Assembly: GCF_003428155.1 (NCBI RefSeq)
Contig: NZ_QLIR01000002.1
Location: 30,001-62,000 of the forward strand
Length of the DNA: 32,000 nucleotides
Reading direction: 5' to 3'
DNA from: Fastidiosibacter lacustris
GTDB taxonomy: Bacteria; Pseudomonadota; Gammaproteobacteria; Francisellales; Francisellaceae
Made by a program: the position numbers and the translations under genes. Shown one piece after another: positions 11,760 to 17,615 of the stretch. Below the pieces are notes generated by a model. It was not told where the DNA came from, did not search any database, and saw only the letters and a program-made list of their open reading frames with translations. The stretch's first letter is position 1, and the number at the start of each line of letters is the position of its first letter.

Positions 11760-12140
11760 GTTTGCATGAGAAAGATAATAAATCGCATATAAATGTTATG
11801 TCTTCAAAAGTATGAATATATTCATTCGAAGAGTATGTTAATTCTTCTGTTGAAGTTGTAGAAATAAGAGAAATATGCACTCAGAAATCCCTACTTTATT
11901 GATAGCGTAGTCATGCATTGCTTGACTACTATCAATGCAAGCGATGGCTTTAGGATCATTTTTAATTGTATACAGAGCCAGACTATGCCTTGCAGGTCCT
12001 GCACAAAGCTCTAACATATGAATTTTATCTATTTGTAAGTAGTTTTTTAGATTCAGGATTTAACCACGAAAGTCCCAATCTTGGGGAATAGTATCGTATA
12101 TTTCCGGCATGCTTTCATAAAAGTTATTAATACTATTCAT
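11760..12140 (-). pseudogene. Class I SAM-dependent methyltransferase, inactivated
   Basis: The ATG at 12140 overlaps the MFS stop by 8 nt. It reads MNSINNFYESMPEIYDTIPQDWDFRG, then an in-frame TAA (12060-12062), then ILNLKNYLQIDKIHMLELCAGPARHSLAL (motif I) and ACIDSSQAMHDYA (motif II). The frame is lost near 11880. The 3' boundary is approximate. Confidence 0.6.
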
Positions 12141-13326
12141 TTCTCACCCATAATAATGTTAACGTTGATACAAAAGACAATACCCCGATAAAAATCAGCG
12201 TATTGCCAACACCAAAATATTTATAAATTAACGTGATATTAAACCCACCAAAACTAGCTAATACTCTTTCACCAGCTGCTAAAGATAATAAACCAAAAAT
12301 ACGATTACTATCTTTGAATAGGGTATTGTTTAGCTCACCTAACGGTCCATATTCAAGATCACCAAAAACGAACATACTCAATGTCATAATAGCAAATACA
12401 ACTATATTAGACACAAAAAAACCCATCATAATAAAGCTAATTGAAAATAACCATCGCAATACAACCACTTGCCACATCAGGTTATTTGATATTAGCTCAA
12501 TGTAGCGATACAACCAAATAACGCACAATCCGCTTAGCAAGTAGATCAAGCCATAAATGCTGGAATTAACAAGCAATGAGTAATGCATTGTGTCACCAAG
12601 TATATTCTGAAATACAGGCATCCAAATAACCGCATAACCGTTATAGATAAAACCTAATATTGCAAAAAAAATCAAAACCATTAAAAACTTTCTATCACGA
12701 AAAAAATATATATGCCTAAAAAATGAAAAATTAGCATCATGGGACTTTAATGATTTACCATCAATGACCAAAAATATAGTGACGGTGTAAAATAATAAAA
12801 GCACAAATATTAATTTGAACGTATAAGCGTATCGATAAAGTTGAGTCATGAATGCACTAAAAACAATCCCTAAAAATGTTGCAAAATTTGACAGAGATTG
12901 TGTTTTGCTAAAAACCTTAGTTTTGCTGATAGAATATTGTAATTTATGAATACTATTAACATACCATCCTTGCAGCACACCTGAAAACGTTGCCATCCCT
13001 AGACCCCAAAAAACAAATGCCACATACATCAATGATAGAGTGTCACTTAATGCAAACAACAATGCAGAGAAAGCTTCTATTATTAAGCCAAAGACAAATA
13101 TTAGTTTACGGTTAGACATATCAGCTAGTATGCTCAATGGAAGTATGCCTAATATGGTTGTTATTGACATAATGGAATAACCAACACCAATACTTACAAT
13201 AGAAAAACCAATATCTAATAAAAACAGGGTTAAAATCGGAAACTTCATCGTGATGATAAATCTATAAAATGAAAAGAACAGGTAATAACTTACCGTTAAT
13301 TGAGACTCACTTAAGAGAATTTTCAC
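12133..13326 (-). CDS. MFS-like 12-TM transporter
   Basis: The 397-aa product is hydrophobic throughout, with a motif-A-like loop LADMSNRKL after TM2. Its GTG start overlaps the radical SAM TGA (GTGA overlap), which implies translational coupling. Confidence 0.75.
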   Translation of the reverse strand: MKILLSESQLTVSYYLFFSFYRFIITMKFPILTLFLLDIGFSIVSIGVGYSIMSITTILGILPLSILADMSNRKLIFVFGLIIEAFSALLFALSDTLSLMYVAFVFWGLGMATFSGVLQGWYVNSIHKLQYSISKTKVFSKTQSLSNFATFLGIVFSAFMTQLYRYAYTFKLIFVLLLFYTVTIFLVIDGKSLKSHDANFSFFRHIYFFRDRKFLMVLIFFAILGFIYNGYAVIWMPVFQNILGDTMHYSLLVNSSIYGLIYLLSGLCVIWLYRYIELISNNLMWQVVVLRWLFSISFIMMGFFVSNIVVFAIMTLSMFVFGDLEYGPLGELNNTLFKDSNRIFGLLSLAAGERVLASFGGFNITLIYKYFGVGNTLIFIGVLSFVSTLTLLWVRNE

Positions 13327-14984
13327 TCAGTTACATCCATGTTTATATTATTTACATAGGCATGGTATTCACTTAATGGTGGAATAACCTCATCGAATCC
13401 ATGGTCTCCAATATAGACTTTATTGCCATCATGCGTCAATATTGTTTCATTTTTTGTACATGTTTCACTAAGCCGTTTAGGCAAGAATCTTTGATTAAAG
13501 AGATCTATCATCTCAAATAATAATATTTGATTTTTCTTAATGCTTTCCTTGGACATTTTTAATGAGCCTTTCTCAAATTCGCCAACATAATAATTTGCTA
13601 AATACAAACTAAACTTATCAAGGTTAGCAAACCAGGCTTCAATTCCTTTTTGAATAGGCTTAATTTCATGCAAATAGGCAAAATTTAATTCCGTACTTTT
13701 CTTTTCATTCTCATATGATAATGATCGTAAGACTTCAATTAATGGCTCAAATTCAGTGTTGAATACATATTTATTGGTGTTTTGGGAACGAAAATACATT
13801 GTCCATTTCGTATAAGTCATGTCACTAAATAAATACTTTTCTAAGCCTTTATTATCCCAACTATGCTCTATATTTAATAAAATAGTCTGTACTCTAAGGC
13901 AGCTGGCATTTTCATGAGTCATAAAGTCATTTAAAGTCTTTATATTATGCTTCAAGGACAATATAGTAGTATTTCTATTAAATGGGATCATGCTTAAAAA
14001 TATATTAATATCCCTGTCTAATAGGTTGATTACACTAGCTTTGATCGTTTCACTTTTTAAATGTTTGTTAAGCTGATCTAAATCACTTTGATAAAATGAC
14101 TCCGCCCCCATATAGACATTATATAATCCAGCCTTCTTTAACAAATCATAATCATTAAATAACTCTAGAGTATCCGCTCGACAATATATCATAAAATTAA
14201 TGTCTGGAAACTTTATGGATATGAGTCTCAACAGTTCTTTACGTTCCTTGTGAAATTTTTTGTTTGCTCCTAAAAATTCCAAATCGAAAAAGAAGAATTT
14301 CCTAATACCCTCCTTGTAATATGTATCAATATCACTAATGATTAAACTATTGCTCCTTGTGCTCCATCTAGATGGGAATGTTGTAAAATTATTAACAAAA
14401 CAGAAATCACACTTATAAACACAGCCTCTAGTAGTTTCTATTGCAGCAGTAAAAAGTTTTTCCTTTTCCTTAGAAACTATTGATCCCATATAGTACGGTG
14501 TTTGTTTGCAATGTATAGAGTGAATATAAGGACTTTTTACCGTTAATCCTACTGATTTGGCTAATTCCATTTCACTATGAATAACGAAATTGATGTCAGT
14601 ATTTATATATTTCCTGAGTTTTTTACTTGCTGTTGCTATTTGCCCATAAATATTAACACTTGCTTTTGGATAATGCTTTTTTACATTTTCTGCCAACCGA
14701 ACAGCATAATGAGGTACTGAACCTCTTTCCCGTGAAACTATAATATAAATTTTATCTTCACCAAGAAGGTAGTCTGCGCTAGATAAGTCTGGATTCAAGA
14801 CGAAATCTTTAACTATACATTCATGGTTACCCTCCACATGGTTATCCACGAAACCTAAAAATGAAGTTATAATAGGGTCTTCTTGAGTGGATACAGAGTT
14901 ATAATGATCCGCTTGAGGCGGTCTAACAAAAACAAGAAACAAACCATTCTCCCAAAACTCAAAATAAAACGCATAAAAACACAC
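13323..14984 (-). CDS. Radical SAM enzyme, probably class B-like, with a C-terminal extension of about 200 aa
   Basis: It has the CX3CX2C cluster motif IETTRGCVYKCDFCFV. An N-terminal ~190-aa alpha/beta region (LFLVFVRPP..., KIYIIVS...) sits where class B enzymes carry the B12-binding domain. GTG is the only available start. Confidence 0.85.
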   Translation of the reverse strand: MCFYAFYFEFWENGLFLVFVRPPQADHYNSVSTQEDPIITSFLGFVDNHVEGNHECIVKDFVLNPDLSSADYLLGEDKIYIIVSRERGSVPHYAVRLAENVKKHYPKASVNIYGQIATASKKLRKYINTDINFVIHSEMELAKSVGLTVKSPYIHSIHCKQTPYYMGSIVSKEKEKLFTAAIETTRGCVYKCDFCFVNNFTTFPSRWSTRSNSLIISDIDTYYKEGIRKFFFFDLEFLGANKKFHKERKELLRLISIKFPDINFMIYCRADTLELFNDYDLLKKAGLYNVYMGAESFYQSDLDQLNKHLKSETIKASVINLLDRDINIFLSMIPFNRNTTILSLKHNIKTLNDFMTHENASCLRVQTILLNIEHSWDNKGLEKYLFSDMTYTKWTMYFRSQNTNKYVFNTEFEPLIEVLRSLSYENEKKSTELNFAYLHEIKPIQKGIEAWFANLDKFSLYLANYYVGEFEKGSLKMSKESIKKNQILLFEMIDLFNQRFLPKRLSETCTKNETILTHDGNKVYIGDHGFDEVIPPLSEYHAYVNNINMDVTE

Positions 14985-15078
14985 TTTCCGGAATAATTAG
15001 TCCTCGGCATCTTTTTTATCGTATAGATTTTTAAAAATTTAACTCATAAGTATCTCTGAAGTTACGCGAATATGATTA

Positions 15079-15189
15079 TTACCCTTCGGCATTCTGAAAA
15101 GTAACAAAACTTCTACGCAAATCACTATTTACTTTACTTGACGCAAGTTGACCAGAAAAAAAATCATTCATAATTTCTTTTGCATCCAT
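15079..15189 (-). CDS. Unannotated 36-codon ORF, candidate precursor peptide (MDAKEIMNDFFSGQLASSKVNSDLRRSFVTFQNAEG)
   Basis: I translated it by hand. The ATG at 15189 is preceded by GGAG with an 8-nt spacer, and the TAA stop is at 15079-15081. It lies 94 nt upstream of the radical SAM start on the same strand. It is too short for the ORF track. Confidence 0.4.
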   Translation of the reverse strand: MDAKEIMNDFFSGQLASSKVNSDLRRSFVTFQNAEG

Positions 15190-15216
15190 AAAAAACGCTC
15201 CTATATTGAGTTGGTT

Positions 15217-15245
15217 GATATAAATTTGATTAAACTTAATGTAAA
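15217..15245 (-). promoter_or_regulatory. Possible sigma70-type promoter for the small ORF / radical SAM cassette
   Basis: On the minus strand this reads TTTACA (15245-15240), a 17-nt spacer, then TATATC (15222-15217), about 28 nt upstream of the small-ORF ATG. The AT-rich context makes chance matches likely. Confidence 0.25.
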
Positions 15246-15477
15246 TAAGTTACAAAAAATCTCATCTCGCTAAGAGTAAAAAAAACGGTTATGTGTCAAT
15301 ATAAAACATTTAAAAAAGTTAAATTTTGTATATTTTTTATTTTCTTATGAATTTTTAGAAATGATATTATTGGTAATATATCAAAACAAAAGATTGGAAA
15401 AATAGTTTGTAAGAGCTCCTACCTAATGTGTCTTGCTTTTTTGAGGGCATTTATTCCTAACTGAATACGCTAAATCA

Positions 15478-15559
15478 AGATGAAGTTTGTGAAACCTCAT
15501 ACAAGGATCGAGGAGGAAAATATCAAGGGCAGACAGGGGTGACTCTACCAAGAGCATAA
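15478..15559. repeat. Right copy of the 82-bp direct repeat (attR-like); orphan dcd 3' remnant
   Basis: It encodes [26 protein letters not shown]-stop, in register with the dcd end (...LPKT-stop). Differences from the left copy are mostly synonymous. The sequence upstream of 15478 is unrelated to dcd. Confidence 0.85.
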
Positions 15560-15689
15560 AAAATCAAATATTAGTGTATAGGTGTATGTATAAATTTAGT
15601 GACTATAAATTACCTAATCAGGTTGAGTTTGCACCATATTTTTTATTAAATGATAAACGTTTTTACATTTAATAAGATGGATTAAAGGT

Positions 15690-17615
15690 ATGCGATTGAT
15701 ACTTTTGGCGTTTTTAGGTTTGGCATTAACAACATTTTCCTTTAGTTATGGAATGGATAAGGCAGAAATTGCCGAGTATTATAAAGCTAAAGATTTACTA
15801 TCGAAAAAAAATTATAAAGCCTATTATCAAGTCAAAGCAAAACTAACAAAAACGCCATTATATACTTATTTGCAATATCAAGAAATTTTATCTGATCCAG
15901 AGCATTTTAAAGATCAGACAATAGAAGACTTTTTAAAAGTGAATCAAGGCAGCTTCTGGGCAGCAGAATTAAGAAAAGATCTGGCTAACTATTATATCAG
16001 TAAACAAAGTTGGTCACGTTTTCTGCAATATTATGAAGGGAACTTGGGTGTAAATGGTCAGTGTTATGCTATTCAGGCTAAGTATGCAACTGGAGAGCAA
16101 GAAGCAGCTTTGGCAGATTTTACCAAACTTTGGTTGTCACGCGTACGTTTGCCTAAAGCATGTAATGATTTCGAAACTATCTGGCAGAATAAGATTATGC
16201 CAAGTGAAAGAGAGATTCGCTTAAAAACTTATGCACTTGCTACTACAGGTTATGTTGACCAAGCCTTAAAATGGATAAATAAAACTAACAATAAAACTCT
16301 CCAAGGTTTTTATGGTTTATGGTTAAAAGCATCGCAAAACCCTAAAAAATTTATGATTGATTGGGTAGAAGAGTACCATCAGATTAATGGCTTTTCATCT
16401 GCAATTGTGAGTGTAATGGACAACTTGTCTGCTAAAGATGTGTATTATGCTGCATCATTTTGGCAAGACTTTAAGCAGAAAAGTTTATTAGATGATAAAA
16501 CGATTAATCTCATTAATGCTGAAATCGCAATTGATTTTGCGAGAAGTCATCATAAAGAAGCATTGACATGGCTTAAGCTAGTTGAAAGCGAATATGCATC
16601 AAGTTTGCTGTGGCAGTGGCGTTTACGTACGGCTTTATATTGGCAGGATTATAAGCTCTATTTAAAATGGTATGATGAACTATCTACTGACTTGAAAAGT
16701 GCTGATGAATGGCGTTATTGGCAGGCAAAAAGCTTGGCAGCATTAAAGCAAATGGATAAAGCTAAGCCTATATTTACTGAGCTTGCAAAACAATTAAGCT
16801 ACTATGGATTTTTATCAGCAGATGTATTGAAACTTCCCTATGTACTTACTAATGAGAATGCAATTGTTGCCCTTGATGTAATTAAAAATATGAAAAACAA
16901 TCTTACTGTACAGCAAGTTTTTGATTTATATCAGATAGGAGAGTATGGTTTATCTTATTCACTATGGCGCTGGAGCATGAATAGTTTTACACGTGAAGAG
17001 TTATTGGCAATTGCTAAACTTGCCCATGATGACAAGATTTACCAAATTTCGGTTAGTGCTTATGGCAATTCTGGTGCCGTGAATGATTTAGTAGGGTTAT
17101 ATCCATTGGCTTTTTGGTCAGATGTAAAAAAGGCAGCAAAGGACTTTGAGATACAGCCAGATGTTATTATCGCGATGATGCGTCAAGAGTCAGCCTTTCG
17201 CGTGCATGGCATATCATCAGCAAGTGCCACAGGTTTAATGCAGTTGTTACCTTCTACAGCCGAATTTTTAGCAAAGAAATATCGTTTAGATTATAAAGAC
17301 GGTGACTTATATCAACCCAATAAAGTAATTATTCTGGGTGCGGCTAATTTAAATTTTATGGATAAGCTTTTTAATGGCAAACTGGTGCTGGGGATGGCTG
17401 CGTATAATGCTGGACAAGGAAATGTTGCAAATTGGCTACCAGAACACACAATGAATGCGGATCAGTGGATTGAGATCATGCCGTTTGGTGAGACGCGGCA
17501 ATATGTGAAAAATATCCTTCGAAATCTCGTGGTTTATAACCAGGTTATTCTAGGCAATAAAACCTTTCATTTAAGCCAGCTGATGTTACCGATATCGAAA
17601 AAAGATAAGTCATAA
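15690..17615 (+). CDS. slt: Soluble lytic murein transglycosylase
   Basis: It has a signal peptide (MRLILLAFLGLALTTFSFSYG), a long superhelical N-terminal region, and a C-terminal SLT domain with catalytic MRQESAF, GLMQLLPSTA and AYNAG. Confidence 0.9.
   Translation: MRLILLAFLGLALTTFSFSYGMDKAEIAEYYKAKDLLSKKNYKAYYQVKAKLTKTPLYTYLQYQEILSDPEHFKDQTIEDFLKVNQGSFWAAELRKDLANYYISKQSWSRFLQYYEGNLGVNGQCYAIQAKYATGEQEAALADFTKLWLSRVRLPKACNDFETIWQNKIMPSEREIRLKTYALATTGYVDQALKWINKTNNKTLQGFYGLWLKASQNPKKFMIDWVEEYHQINGFSSAIVSVMDNLSAKDVYYAASFWQDFKQKSLLDDKTINLINAEIAIDFARSHHKEALTWLKLVESEYASSLLWQWRLRTALYWQDYKLYLKWYDELSTDLKSADEWRYWQAKSLAALKQMDKAKPIFTELAKQLSYYGFLSADVLKLPYVLTNENAIVALDVIKNMKNNLTVQQVFDLYQIGEYGLSYSLWRWSMNSFTREELLAIAKLAHDDKIYQISVSAYGNSGAVNDLVGLYPLAFWSDVKKAAKDFEIQPDVIIAMMRQESAFRVHGISSASATGLMQLLPSTAEFLAKKYRLDYKDGDLYQPNKVIILGAANLNFMDKLFNGKLVLGMAAYNAGQGNVANWLPEHTMNADQWIEIMPFGETRQYVKNILRNLVVYNQVILGNKTFHLSQLMLPISKKDKS

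Follow-up and report, generated by a model that had tools for sequence, protein, structure and literature searches.

Whether a 36-codon open reading frame (ORF) lying immediately upstream of a radical S-adenosylmethionine (SAM) gene in Fastidiosibacter lacustris is a gene at all and, if so, whether its product is the substrate of the adjacent enzyme, is the question raised by the stretch of contig NZ_QLIR01000002.1 (assembly GCF_003428155.1) analysed here. The window is the whole stretch of 32,000 nt, and coordinates are window positions unless another locus is named. A first-pass annotation had translated the ORF by hand from the minus strand and proposed that it encodes an unannotated leader-core precursor; this translation agrees exactly with the program-derived ORF (Table 1). 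The analysis demonstrated that the ORF is very probably a real gene tied to the radical SAM family, since its frame, length and position are conserved, the sequence is under selection and related peptides occur in other phyla. On balance, its product would seem to be a substrate, either a precursor or a scaffold, of the neighbouring enzyme, of the type known from peptides that are made on the ribosome and modified after translation (RiPPs).

The length of the ORF gives no measure of its reality. Frames starting with ATG and reaching at least 36 codons arose on the same strand in 422 of 2000 shuffles (21%) of the 493-nt spacer with a GC content of 27%, so that length alone is not beyond chance, which fits the caution already voiced in the first-pass annotation that AT-rich DNA yields such frames by accident. 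The view that a chance open frame in AT-rich intergenic DNA has been picked up could also draw on the fact that the window peptide and three homologues found no match among the models of Pfam, NCBIfam, PHROGs or PADLOC; the database relatives of the peptide carry either no name or the label 'hypothetical protein'. This view is, however, effectively refuted by comparison with Photobacterium. The closest radical SAM relatives with retrievable genomic context, at about 50% identity, are those of Photobacterium sp. WH24, P. galatheae S2753 and Photobacterium sp. JCM 19050, and in all three genomes an ORF of 36 codons immediately precedes the radical SAM gene. The window peptide aligns with the Photobacterium peptides without gaps at 14–16 identities in 36 positions, and length, frame, position and Shine-Dalgarno spacing are shared despite the saturation of synonymous sites. 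The Shine-Dalgarno sequence claimed for the window ORF is present, and the Photobacterium homologues (both sequences read) have AAGGA 7 nt before the ATG. Preservation of the frame upstream of orthologous radical SAM genes had been set beforehand as a point on which the proposal should stand or fall, and frame, length and position are all preserved.

The similarity is also far outside what composition would give. The ungapped BLOSUM62 score of the window peptide against the syntenic Photobacterium peptide is 85, compared with a shuffle mean of -25 ± 13 and a shuffle maximum of 44; none of 200,000 shuffles reached the observed score. Among the window and Photobacterium peptide ORFs, the proportion of synonymous differences (pS) is 0.74–0.85, i.e. 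saturated, versus 0.19–0.40 for the non-synonymous ones (pN); the values are given as proportions, because with saturated synonymous sites the dN/dS ratio is not computable for most pairs. The search for purifying selection recommended in the first-pass annotation thus revealed far fewer non-synonymous than synonymous changes. Between WH24 and JCM 19050, the peptide ORFs differ at 10, 6 and 17 sites in codon positions 1, 2 and 3, respectively, and the nucleotide identity of the ORF is 0.69 versus 0.53 for the 140 nt upstream.

The family extends well beyond this clade. Distant radical SAM relatives (31–37% identity) from Nocardiopsis, Amycolatopsis, Myxococcus, a metagenome-assembled genome (MAG) of Cyclobacteriaceae and metagenomes also have a short acidic ORF heading the operon. 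Altogether, a related small ORF was found at the operon head in 12 of 20 distinct loci of the enzyme family, including four of the four belonging to the window's own clade; a further locus (L008) was excluded, since it ends at the enzyme start. The C-termini of the distant peptides read ..VFVDEA/GI/LV/KP, ..RFVDQNTVP, ..VFVQYLDGPEGGNA, ..YFVNVMALGI and ..YVFLMGPP, and what they share with the window peptide is only the C-terminal Phe-Val/Ile/Leu motif. In an alignment of 10 peptides the only invariant residues are the initiator methionine and F28 (window numbering), the latter being followed by valine or isoleucine (Val29 in the window); the TARA contig peptide, in which leucine follows the phenylalanine, stands outside this alignment. 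The peptides are 25–73 residues long and, as judged from the alignment, have in common little beyond a motif of 2–3 residues.

Within the window peptide, the N-terminal half is acidic and the conserved C-terminal stretch can be written as RxSF[VI][TS]FQxxEG. In near-identical pairs of variants the N-terminal part differs and the last 12–15 residues are unchanged, which indicates that the C-terminal segment is the constrained part of the molecule. The terminal glycine and the richness in serine and phenylalanine emphasized in the first-pass annotation are therefore not the constrained feature; this is the internal Phe-Val/Ile dyad near the C-terminus. Many of the family peptides end in proline directly before the stop codon.

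The claim that the ORF is unannotated also proved correct. The exact window peptide is missing from a collection of 15 billion proteins in which the neighbouring genes of the same genome are present, taken from NCBI, and from this it follows that the ORF is not part of the deposited annotation. The WH24 peptide is likewise missing from that collection, and the sole record of the P. galatheae-type peptide sequence is a Logan assembly. Annotation pipelines thus miss what may be the key gene of the locus, both in this genome and in Photobacterium sp. WH24. The features of the window and the peptides of the family are listed in Table 1.

Table 1. Features of the window around the small ORF, with the peptides encoded at related loci.
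Feature	Position	Strand	Sequence or description
Small ORF, 36 aa	15079–15189	-	MDAKEIMNDFFSGQLASSKVNSDLRRSFVTFQNAEG; ATG start, from the ORF listing
Shine-Dalgarno sequence AGGAG	15198–15202	-	Read from the sequence; 8 nt (CGTTTTTT) separate AGGAG from the ATG (15189)
TTTACA-17-TATATC string	15217–15245	-	TTTACA 15245–15240, TATATC 15222–15217; weak, not called by the consensus scan
Spacer from peptide stop to radical SAM start, 136 nt	14943–15078	-	No terminator, stable fold or Rfam match
Radical SAM enzyme, 539 aa	13323–14942	-	PF04055, 42.6 bits; database start TTG at 14942
Major facilitator superfamily (MFS) transporter, 397 aa	12133–13326	-	4-nt overlap between its start and the radical SAM stop
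Methyltransferase-like remnant	11838–12140	-	N-terminal ~88 codons with an in-frame stop, rest in short frames
Left copy of 81-nt direct repeat	11345–11425	+	True dcd 3' end; left island edge
Right copy of 81-nt direct repeat	15478–15558	+	91% identical; displaced duplicate of the dcd 3' end; right island edge
Strain-variable segment	13429–15276		Peptide ORF, its upstream region and the radical SAM gene except its last 35 codons; replaced in the sister genome
Photobacterium sp. WH24 peptide			MNIDDVMNDFFNEELTPAAVMDDARLSFISFQSSEG; 36 codons, upstream of the radical SAM gene
P. galatheae peptide			WH24 peptide with N2D; 36 codons
Photobacterium sp. JCM 19050 peptide			MNIDALMSVYFSKKMTLPAVMDDTRLSFISFQAAEG; 36 codons, upstream of the radical SAM gene
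Nocardiopsis peptide			MEDRITDFEQEADIEDVFVDEAIVP
Amycolatopsis circi peptide			MEDSVVDFEQAADVEDVFVDEAIVP
Cyclobacteriaceae MAG and Roseivirga peptide			C-terminal part ...SLDVDSRDVFVDEALKP
Metagenome L006 peptide			C-terminal part ...EEVAVEDVFVDEGIKP
Metagenome L007 peptide			C-terminal part ...DPEVVFVQYLDGPEGGNA
Metagenome L002–L004 peptide			73 aa, ending in DKYFVNVMALGI
Myxococcus peptide			...EQEMVRMRFVDQNTVP; upstream of methyltransferase-like, aldolase-like, radical SAM and short-chain dehydrogenase genes
TARA contig L020 peptide			C-terminal part ...DDSILSSYVFLMGPP

The gene downstream of the small ORF is, as had been claimed, a radical SAM gene on the same strand. The enzyme belongs to a rare, small and unnamed family. 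Ten relatives came up in a word-indexed search of 5.8 billion proteins. In an exhaustive profile search of 1.84 billion representatives, the clusters scoring more than 230 bits comprised about 30 full-length and 15 fragmentary ones, and the next scores lay under 195 bits. A metagenomic fragment (P0040) shares 63% identity with the enzyme of the window. No match was obtained by tblastn of the enzyme against 72,556 plasmids. The three cysteines of the CxxxCxxC motif (C174, C178 and C181) are invariant in 8 sequences and are the only invariant cysteines, so that no SPASM or twitch domain appears to be present; no SPASM family of Pfam or NCBIfam was matched, and the C-terminal domain is predicted to be all-helical. 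The NCBIfam matches all lie far under the cut-offs and cover the core region only, the best being ArsL (68.7 bits versus a cut-off of 450), followed by B12-binding radical SAM families; ApyD scores 14.6 bits versus a cut-off of 750.

The best sequence matches of the enzyme in the PDB are OxsB and CysS. An AlphaFold model with a predicted local distance difference test (pLDDT) score of 76.8 consists of an N-terminal Rossmann-like domain, a radical SAM barrel and a C-terminal helical domain, and its best structural matches are OxsB, AprD4, TsrM, CysS and TokK (Foldseek E = 6e-14 to 5e-7); the predicted architecture is therefore that of the class B (cobalamin-domain) type. The model matches OxsB, TsrM, CysS and TokK over both domains, yet it also matches AprD4, the equivalent domain of which does not use cobalamin. 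The B12-binding family PF02310 was undetected in the enzyme. A use of cobalamin by this enzyme is possible.

Two features typical of RiPP precursors are found at these loci, namely an ORF of less than ~100 residues beside a modifying enzyme on the same strand, and the co-occurrence of peptide and enzyme across the 20 loci. Same-strand operon organization, as seen in the overlap of the MFS and radical SAM genes and in the gap of only 7 nt between peptide stop and enzyme start in Photobacterium, points in the same direction. The substrate reading is accordingly favoured by the position of the ORF, by its co-occurrence with the enzyme across phyla, by a short, variable and acidic body with a tiny core, by the frequent presence of an exporter and by an enzyme architecture known to act on peptides. 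In such a pathway, the acidic N-terminal half of the peptide would serve for recognition, and the single [4Fe-4S]/SAM site, possibly together with cobalamin in the Rossmann-like domain, would functionalise a C-H bond at or beside the Phe-Val/Ile dyad, 6–10 residues from the C-terminus. Enzymes of this architecture are known for C-methylation and cross-linking. Where the cluster is complete, further processing may fall to the methyltransferase-like protein, to the metal-dependent class II aldolase-fold protein and, in many cases, to a short-chain dehydrogenase (SDR), and the MFS pump would export the product.

The partner genes also nourish a different view of the peptide. Methyltransferase-like and aldolase-like proteins accompany the radical SAM enzyme in 12 of the 13 loci compared. 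The former, of ~260 residues, belongs to class I (Methyltransf_25); the latter, of ~340 residues, combines a C-terminal half of class II aldolase fold, similar to FucA/YgbL, in which His267, His269 and His317 are invariant, with a flavodoxin/CheY-like domain in its N-terminal half (model pLDDT 91.5). Homologues of the aldolase-like protein also occur in Vibrio cholerae, Moritella sp. JT01, Moraxella and Ca. Sororendozoicomonas. Frequent additional genes encode SDRs, PhyH and Rieske oxygenases and MFS transporters. The MFS gene is found in the cluster in the window, at the three Photobacterium loci and at L018 and L020, and is divergently placed in L005; the window transporter, which is likely an exporter, is 47% identical to the one at the same position in WH24. 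In related clusters, the gene next after that of the radical SAM enzyme is often one for an SDR.

On a second view, the radical SAM, methyltransferase-like, aldolase-like and SDR enzymes would form the heart of a pathway to a small molecule, and the peptide could belong to it as an accessory other than the substrate, such as a subunit, chaperone, carrier or immunity factor. The enzyme trio, being more universal than the peptide, would suit this view, as would the structural neighbours OxsB and AprD4, which act on small molecules, the frequent SDR gene after the radical SAM gene, an arrangement that recalls AprD4 with AprD3, and the failure to find either a RiPP recognition element (RRE) or a protease. 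Peptides so variable in length with so short a common motif are, however, poor material for a folded subunit, and the clusters hold no conserved ligase (ATP-grasp or PEARL-like) for loading a carrier peptide, so that an accessory role is considered unlikely.

Several observations weigh against the peptide being a substrate. No RRE or PqqD-like domain was detected by Pfam or NCBIfam in the radical SAM, methyltransferase-like or aldolase-like proteins, and the conserved cluster genes include no peptidase, the transporters present being of the MFS type only; an RRE is not required by every RiPP class. The N-terminal half of the aldolase-like protein was considered as a candidate RRE and rejected, since the model shows a flavodoxin/CheY-like alpha/beta domain and not a winged helix. 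Chemistry on small molecules is typical both of the SDR and class II aldolase-fold partners and of AprD4 and OxsB, the structural neighbours of the radical SAM enzyme. Furthermore, the peptide was not found in 8 of the 20 loci: six-frame profile and motif searches gave none in seven (L005, L018, L015, L021 and L022–L024), and the small ORF present in L019 has no motif. Finally, in the species itself, the window is the only one of the 13 loci compared without intact methyltransferase-like and aldolase-like genes, and a sister strain has neither the peptide nor most of the radical SAM gene. Of the leader-core precursor originally proposed, then, what stands is a real, conserved and presumably translated gene tied to the enzyme; the precursor role itself, with neither RRE, protease nor SPASM domain found, is put forward here as the reading that the evidence slightly favours.

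Among the loci in which the peptide was not recognised, L015 has a stretch reading 'TFLSFQ' upstream of its Chlamydiales enzyme, which was dropped as a candidate for want of a start codon. L005 and L018 form a sub-branch with radical SAM enzymes 61% identical to each other; both keep the radical SAM, methyltransferase-like and aldolase-like genes, together with extra genes of 414–454 codons and an MFS gene, and show no recognisable upstream peptide. In this branch either the peptide is encoded elsewhere or the enzymes work without one.

The position of the ORF invites yet another explanation, that of a regulatory upstream ORF encoding a leader or arrest peptide. Prompted by a small molecule, ribosomes would stall on the hydrophobic motif at its C-terminus, and in this way the expression of the downstream enzymes, which would make a metabolite other than a peptide, would be set. 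The concentration of conservation in the C-terminal ~12 residues and the Pro-stop ending of many members would be in keeping with stalling, as would the location of the ribosome-binding site of the Photobacterium radical SAM gene within the 3' end of the small ORF, the constant place of the ORF at the operon head even before a first gene other than the radical SAM gene (Myxococcus), and the small-molecule appearance of the cluster enzymes. ErmCL stalls on an IFVI motif, which is taken as a lead only. The distance from the peptide to the next gene, however, varies from 2 nt to 136 nt across the loci. Furthermore, a riboswitch or attenuator in the window spacer was considered and rejected: there was no Rfam match (E <= 1) and no terminator-like site in 11300–15700, and the spacer folds no better than its shuffles (z = +1.45). 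Variable spacing and the missing RNA structure weaken the arrest explanation, and it would be unusual for a regulatory peptide to be conserved, along with a single enzyme family, across four or more phyla. Regulation by arrest is thus judged improbable, and the peptide continues to be discussed below as a putative substrate.

The promoter proposed upstream of the ORF fared less well than the ORF itself. The TTTACA-17-TATATC string is indeed at the place claimed, its second hexamer ending 27 nt upstream of the peptide ATG; a role as promoter is unsupported by the consensus scan, which does not call the string because the second hexamer lacks the final T. Promoter-like sites are in fact fewer in the region than in its shuffles (18 versus 25.8 ± 4.3).

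The cluster in the window occupies an island of ~4.1 kb (11426–15477) with a GC content of 30–32% versus 36–40% outside it. Bracketed by the two copies of the direct repeat, the island resembles an integration scar at the dcd end. No integrase is left inside it, and fragments of other genes are present. A phage or defence origin was considered and rejected, as PADLOC gave only a generic radical SAM match of 28 bits and PHROGs nothing relevant. The methyltransferase-like gene survives as a pseudogene, recognised by tblastn at 11883–12128 (E = 6e-4) with a stop within the alignment, and its remnant shares 84% nucleotide identity with a paralogue in the sister strain. Of the aldolase-like gene, the window has no copy. 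Since only the peptide, radical SAM and MFS genes are intact, this genome can have no more than a truncated pathway, which may be a relic.

The sister genome (GCA_024208055.1) has flanks 99.3–99.7% identical to those of the window. The variable segment is replaced there by 1.1 kb with three ORFs (L016:6331-7539). The first has 61 codons, most of which represent the C-terminus encoded by another, paralogous radical SAM gene; the second is an SDR gene; and the third is a chimera in which a methyltransferase-like N-terminus passes, at 'NKV', into the final 31 codons of the radical SAM gene of the window type. The 61-residue product starts with 14 residues (MDYEVFHDFVSTLL), preceded by an AGGAGG of their own, that resemble the N-terminus of the window peptide (MDAKEIMNDFFSGQL), and this start may be, as a suggestion only, that of a paralogous peptide gene fused by deletion. 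Because the sister strain carries different, paralogous remnants at the same spot, the ancestor of the species probably had two tandem related clusters, which have since decayed differently in each strain by independent deletions.

It is conceivable, if rather doubtful, that the window copy is an inert relic in a decaying island and makes no product, a view compatible with any of the readings of the family at large. It would account for the loss of the intact methyltransferase-like and aldolase-like genes, for an island left with gene fragments and no integrase, for the divergent remnants in a nearly identical sister strain and for the lack of support for a promoter. Intact and translationally coupled peptide, radical SAM and MFS genes, with all residues invariant in the family kept in the 539-residue enzyme, would nevertheless be unexpected after long neutral decay in DNA of 30% GC, in which stop codons arise easily. 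The local importance of the cluster in this genome is probably low, given that the island at the dcd 3' end decays and differs between near-identical strains.

Other observations were made around the island and at related loci. Between dcd and the methyltransferase-like pseudogene, two overlapping ORFs encoding 126–128 residues lie on the minus strand (11364–11880); the 128-residue product (11364–11750) is by eye hydrophobic and membrane-protein-like and has a weak PHROG match of unknown function. Both are probably more gene debris of the island. Directly upstream of dcd, a single-chain restriction-modification protein of 1325 residues is encoded on the plus strand (6869–10846), and the last 11 nt of its gene overlap with the start of dcd. 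Its domains, N6_Mtase, Eco57I and Methylase_S, are those that the Pfam record gives for the same 1325-residue gene in the sister strain. A second strain-specific indel is found at ~27388–27405, where the sister strain has ~1.5 kb extra (L016:19675-21210). It adjoins a minus-strand group encoding a DUF2087/Methyltransf_24 protein (24190–25446), a 222-residue protein without a Pfam match (25451–26119) and the product of 26116–27363 (MFS_1 in the sister strain). In WH24, an ORF of 110 residues (L001:5225-5557), situated ~300 nt upstream of the gene for the peptide, resembles on visual inspection a transposase fragment from the C-terminal end, which would fit horizontal transfer of the cluster.

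If the peptide of the family is indeed a substrate, it offers an entry to new radical SAM peptide chemistry and is a good lead for natural-product enzymology. Complete clusters are present in the culturable Photobacterium galatheae S2753, Amycolatopsis circi DSM 45561 and Nocardiopsis sp. FR4, which permit direct testing. In the full-text literature searched, the coverage of which is incomplete and gives no proof of novelty, no description of the peptide/enzyme pair was found. Tentatively, the family may represent an undescribed class of peptide-derived natural product, in which an acidic peptide with a Phe-Val/Ile core, a SPASM-less enzyme of the class B type and the pair of a methyltransferase-like and a flavodoxin-fused aldolase-fold protein would yield one conserved, exported product, spread horizontally through Gammaproteobacteria, Actinomycetota, Myxococcota, Bacteroidota and uncultured lineages.

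Among known systems, the small ORF recalls at first the leader peptides ErmCL, TnaC and SecM, which also consist of a short ORF heading an operon, most conserved near the C-terminus; the many Pro-stop endings add to this likeness. The window differs from them in having no downstream terminator, antiterminator or sequestering hairpin, and the family differs in its variable spacing and in its tie to one enzyme family across phyla. OxsB, AprD4, TsrM, CysS and TokK, the best structural matches to the model, have the same architecture as the enzyme; AprD4, moreover, is accompanied by the reductase AprD3, which is comparable to the SDR gene frequently located behind the radical SAM gene in the related clusters. 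The identity to these enzymes is, however, only 12–15%, their substrates are nucleotides, aminoglycosides, free tryptophan and carrier-bound small molecules, and no dedicated small peptide gene belongs to them.

The pathways of pyrroloquinoline quinone (PQQ; PqqA/PqqE/PqqD) and mycofactocin (MftA/MftC/MftB) likewise have a very short peptide gene upstream of the radical SAM gene and a peptide in which the C-terminal core is kept and the rest varies. Conservation of the C-terminal core with variation elsewhere suggests one conserved product rather than diversified antibiotics. In contrast to the present family, in which neither was found, PqqE and MftC are SPASM enzymes with an RRE partner, and a cofactor would not be expected to have an MFS exporter as seen here.

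The class B radical SAM enzymes that act on ribosomal peptides, i.e. PoyC, the bottromycin enzymes BotRMT1-3, TbtI and ApyD, several of which are C-methyltransferases, provide the remaining comparison. They share with the present system a short peptide gene beside an enzyme composed of a Rossmann-like domain and a single-cluster barrel without SPASM, and hydrophobic residues, e.g. valine and phenylalanine, are typical targets of class B peptide C-methyltransferases. The differences are that there is no family-level match, even though an ApyD model is present in NCBIfam, that PF02310 is undetected and that aldolase-fold and methyltransferase-like partners are foreign to those systems. The pairing of a short peptide gene with a radical SAM enzyme is known as such; no curated family is matched by the peptide family and the Phe-Val/Ile core that marks it, by the enzyme of class B type lacking SPASM or by the two partners, one methyltransferase-like and one with the aldolase fold.

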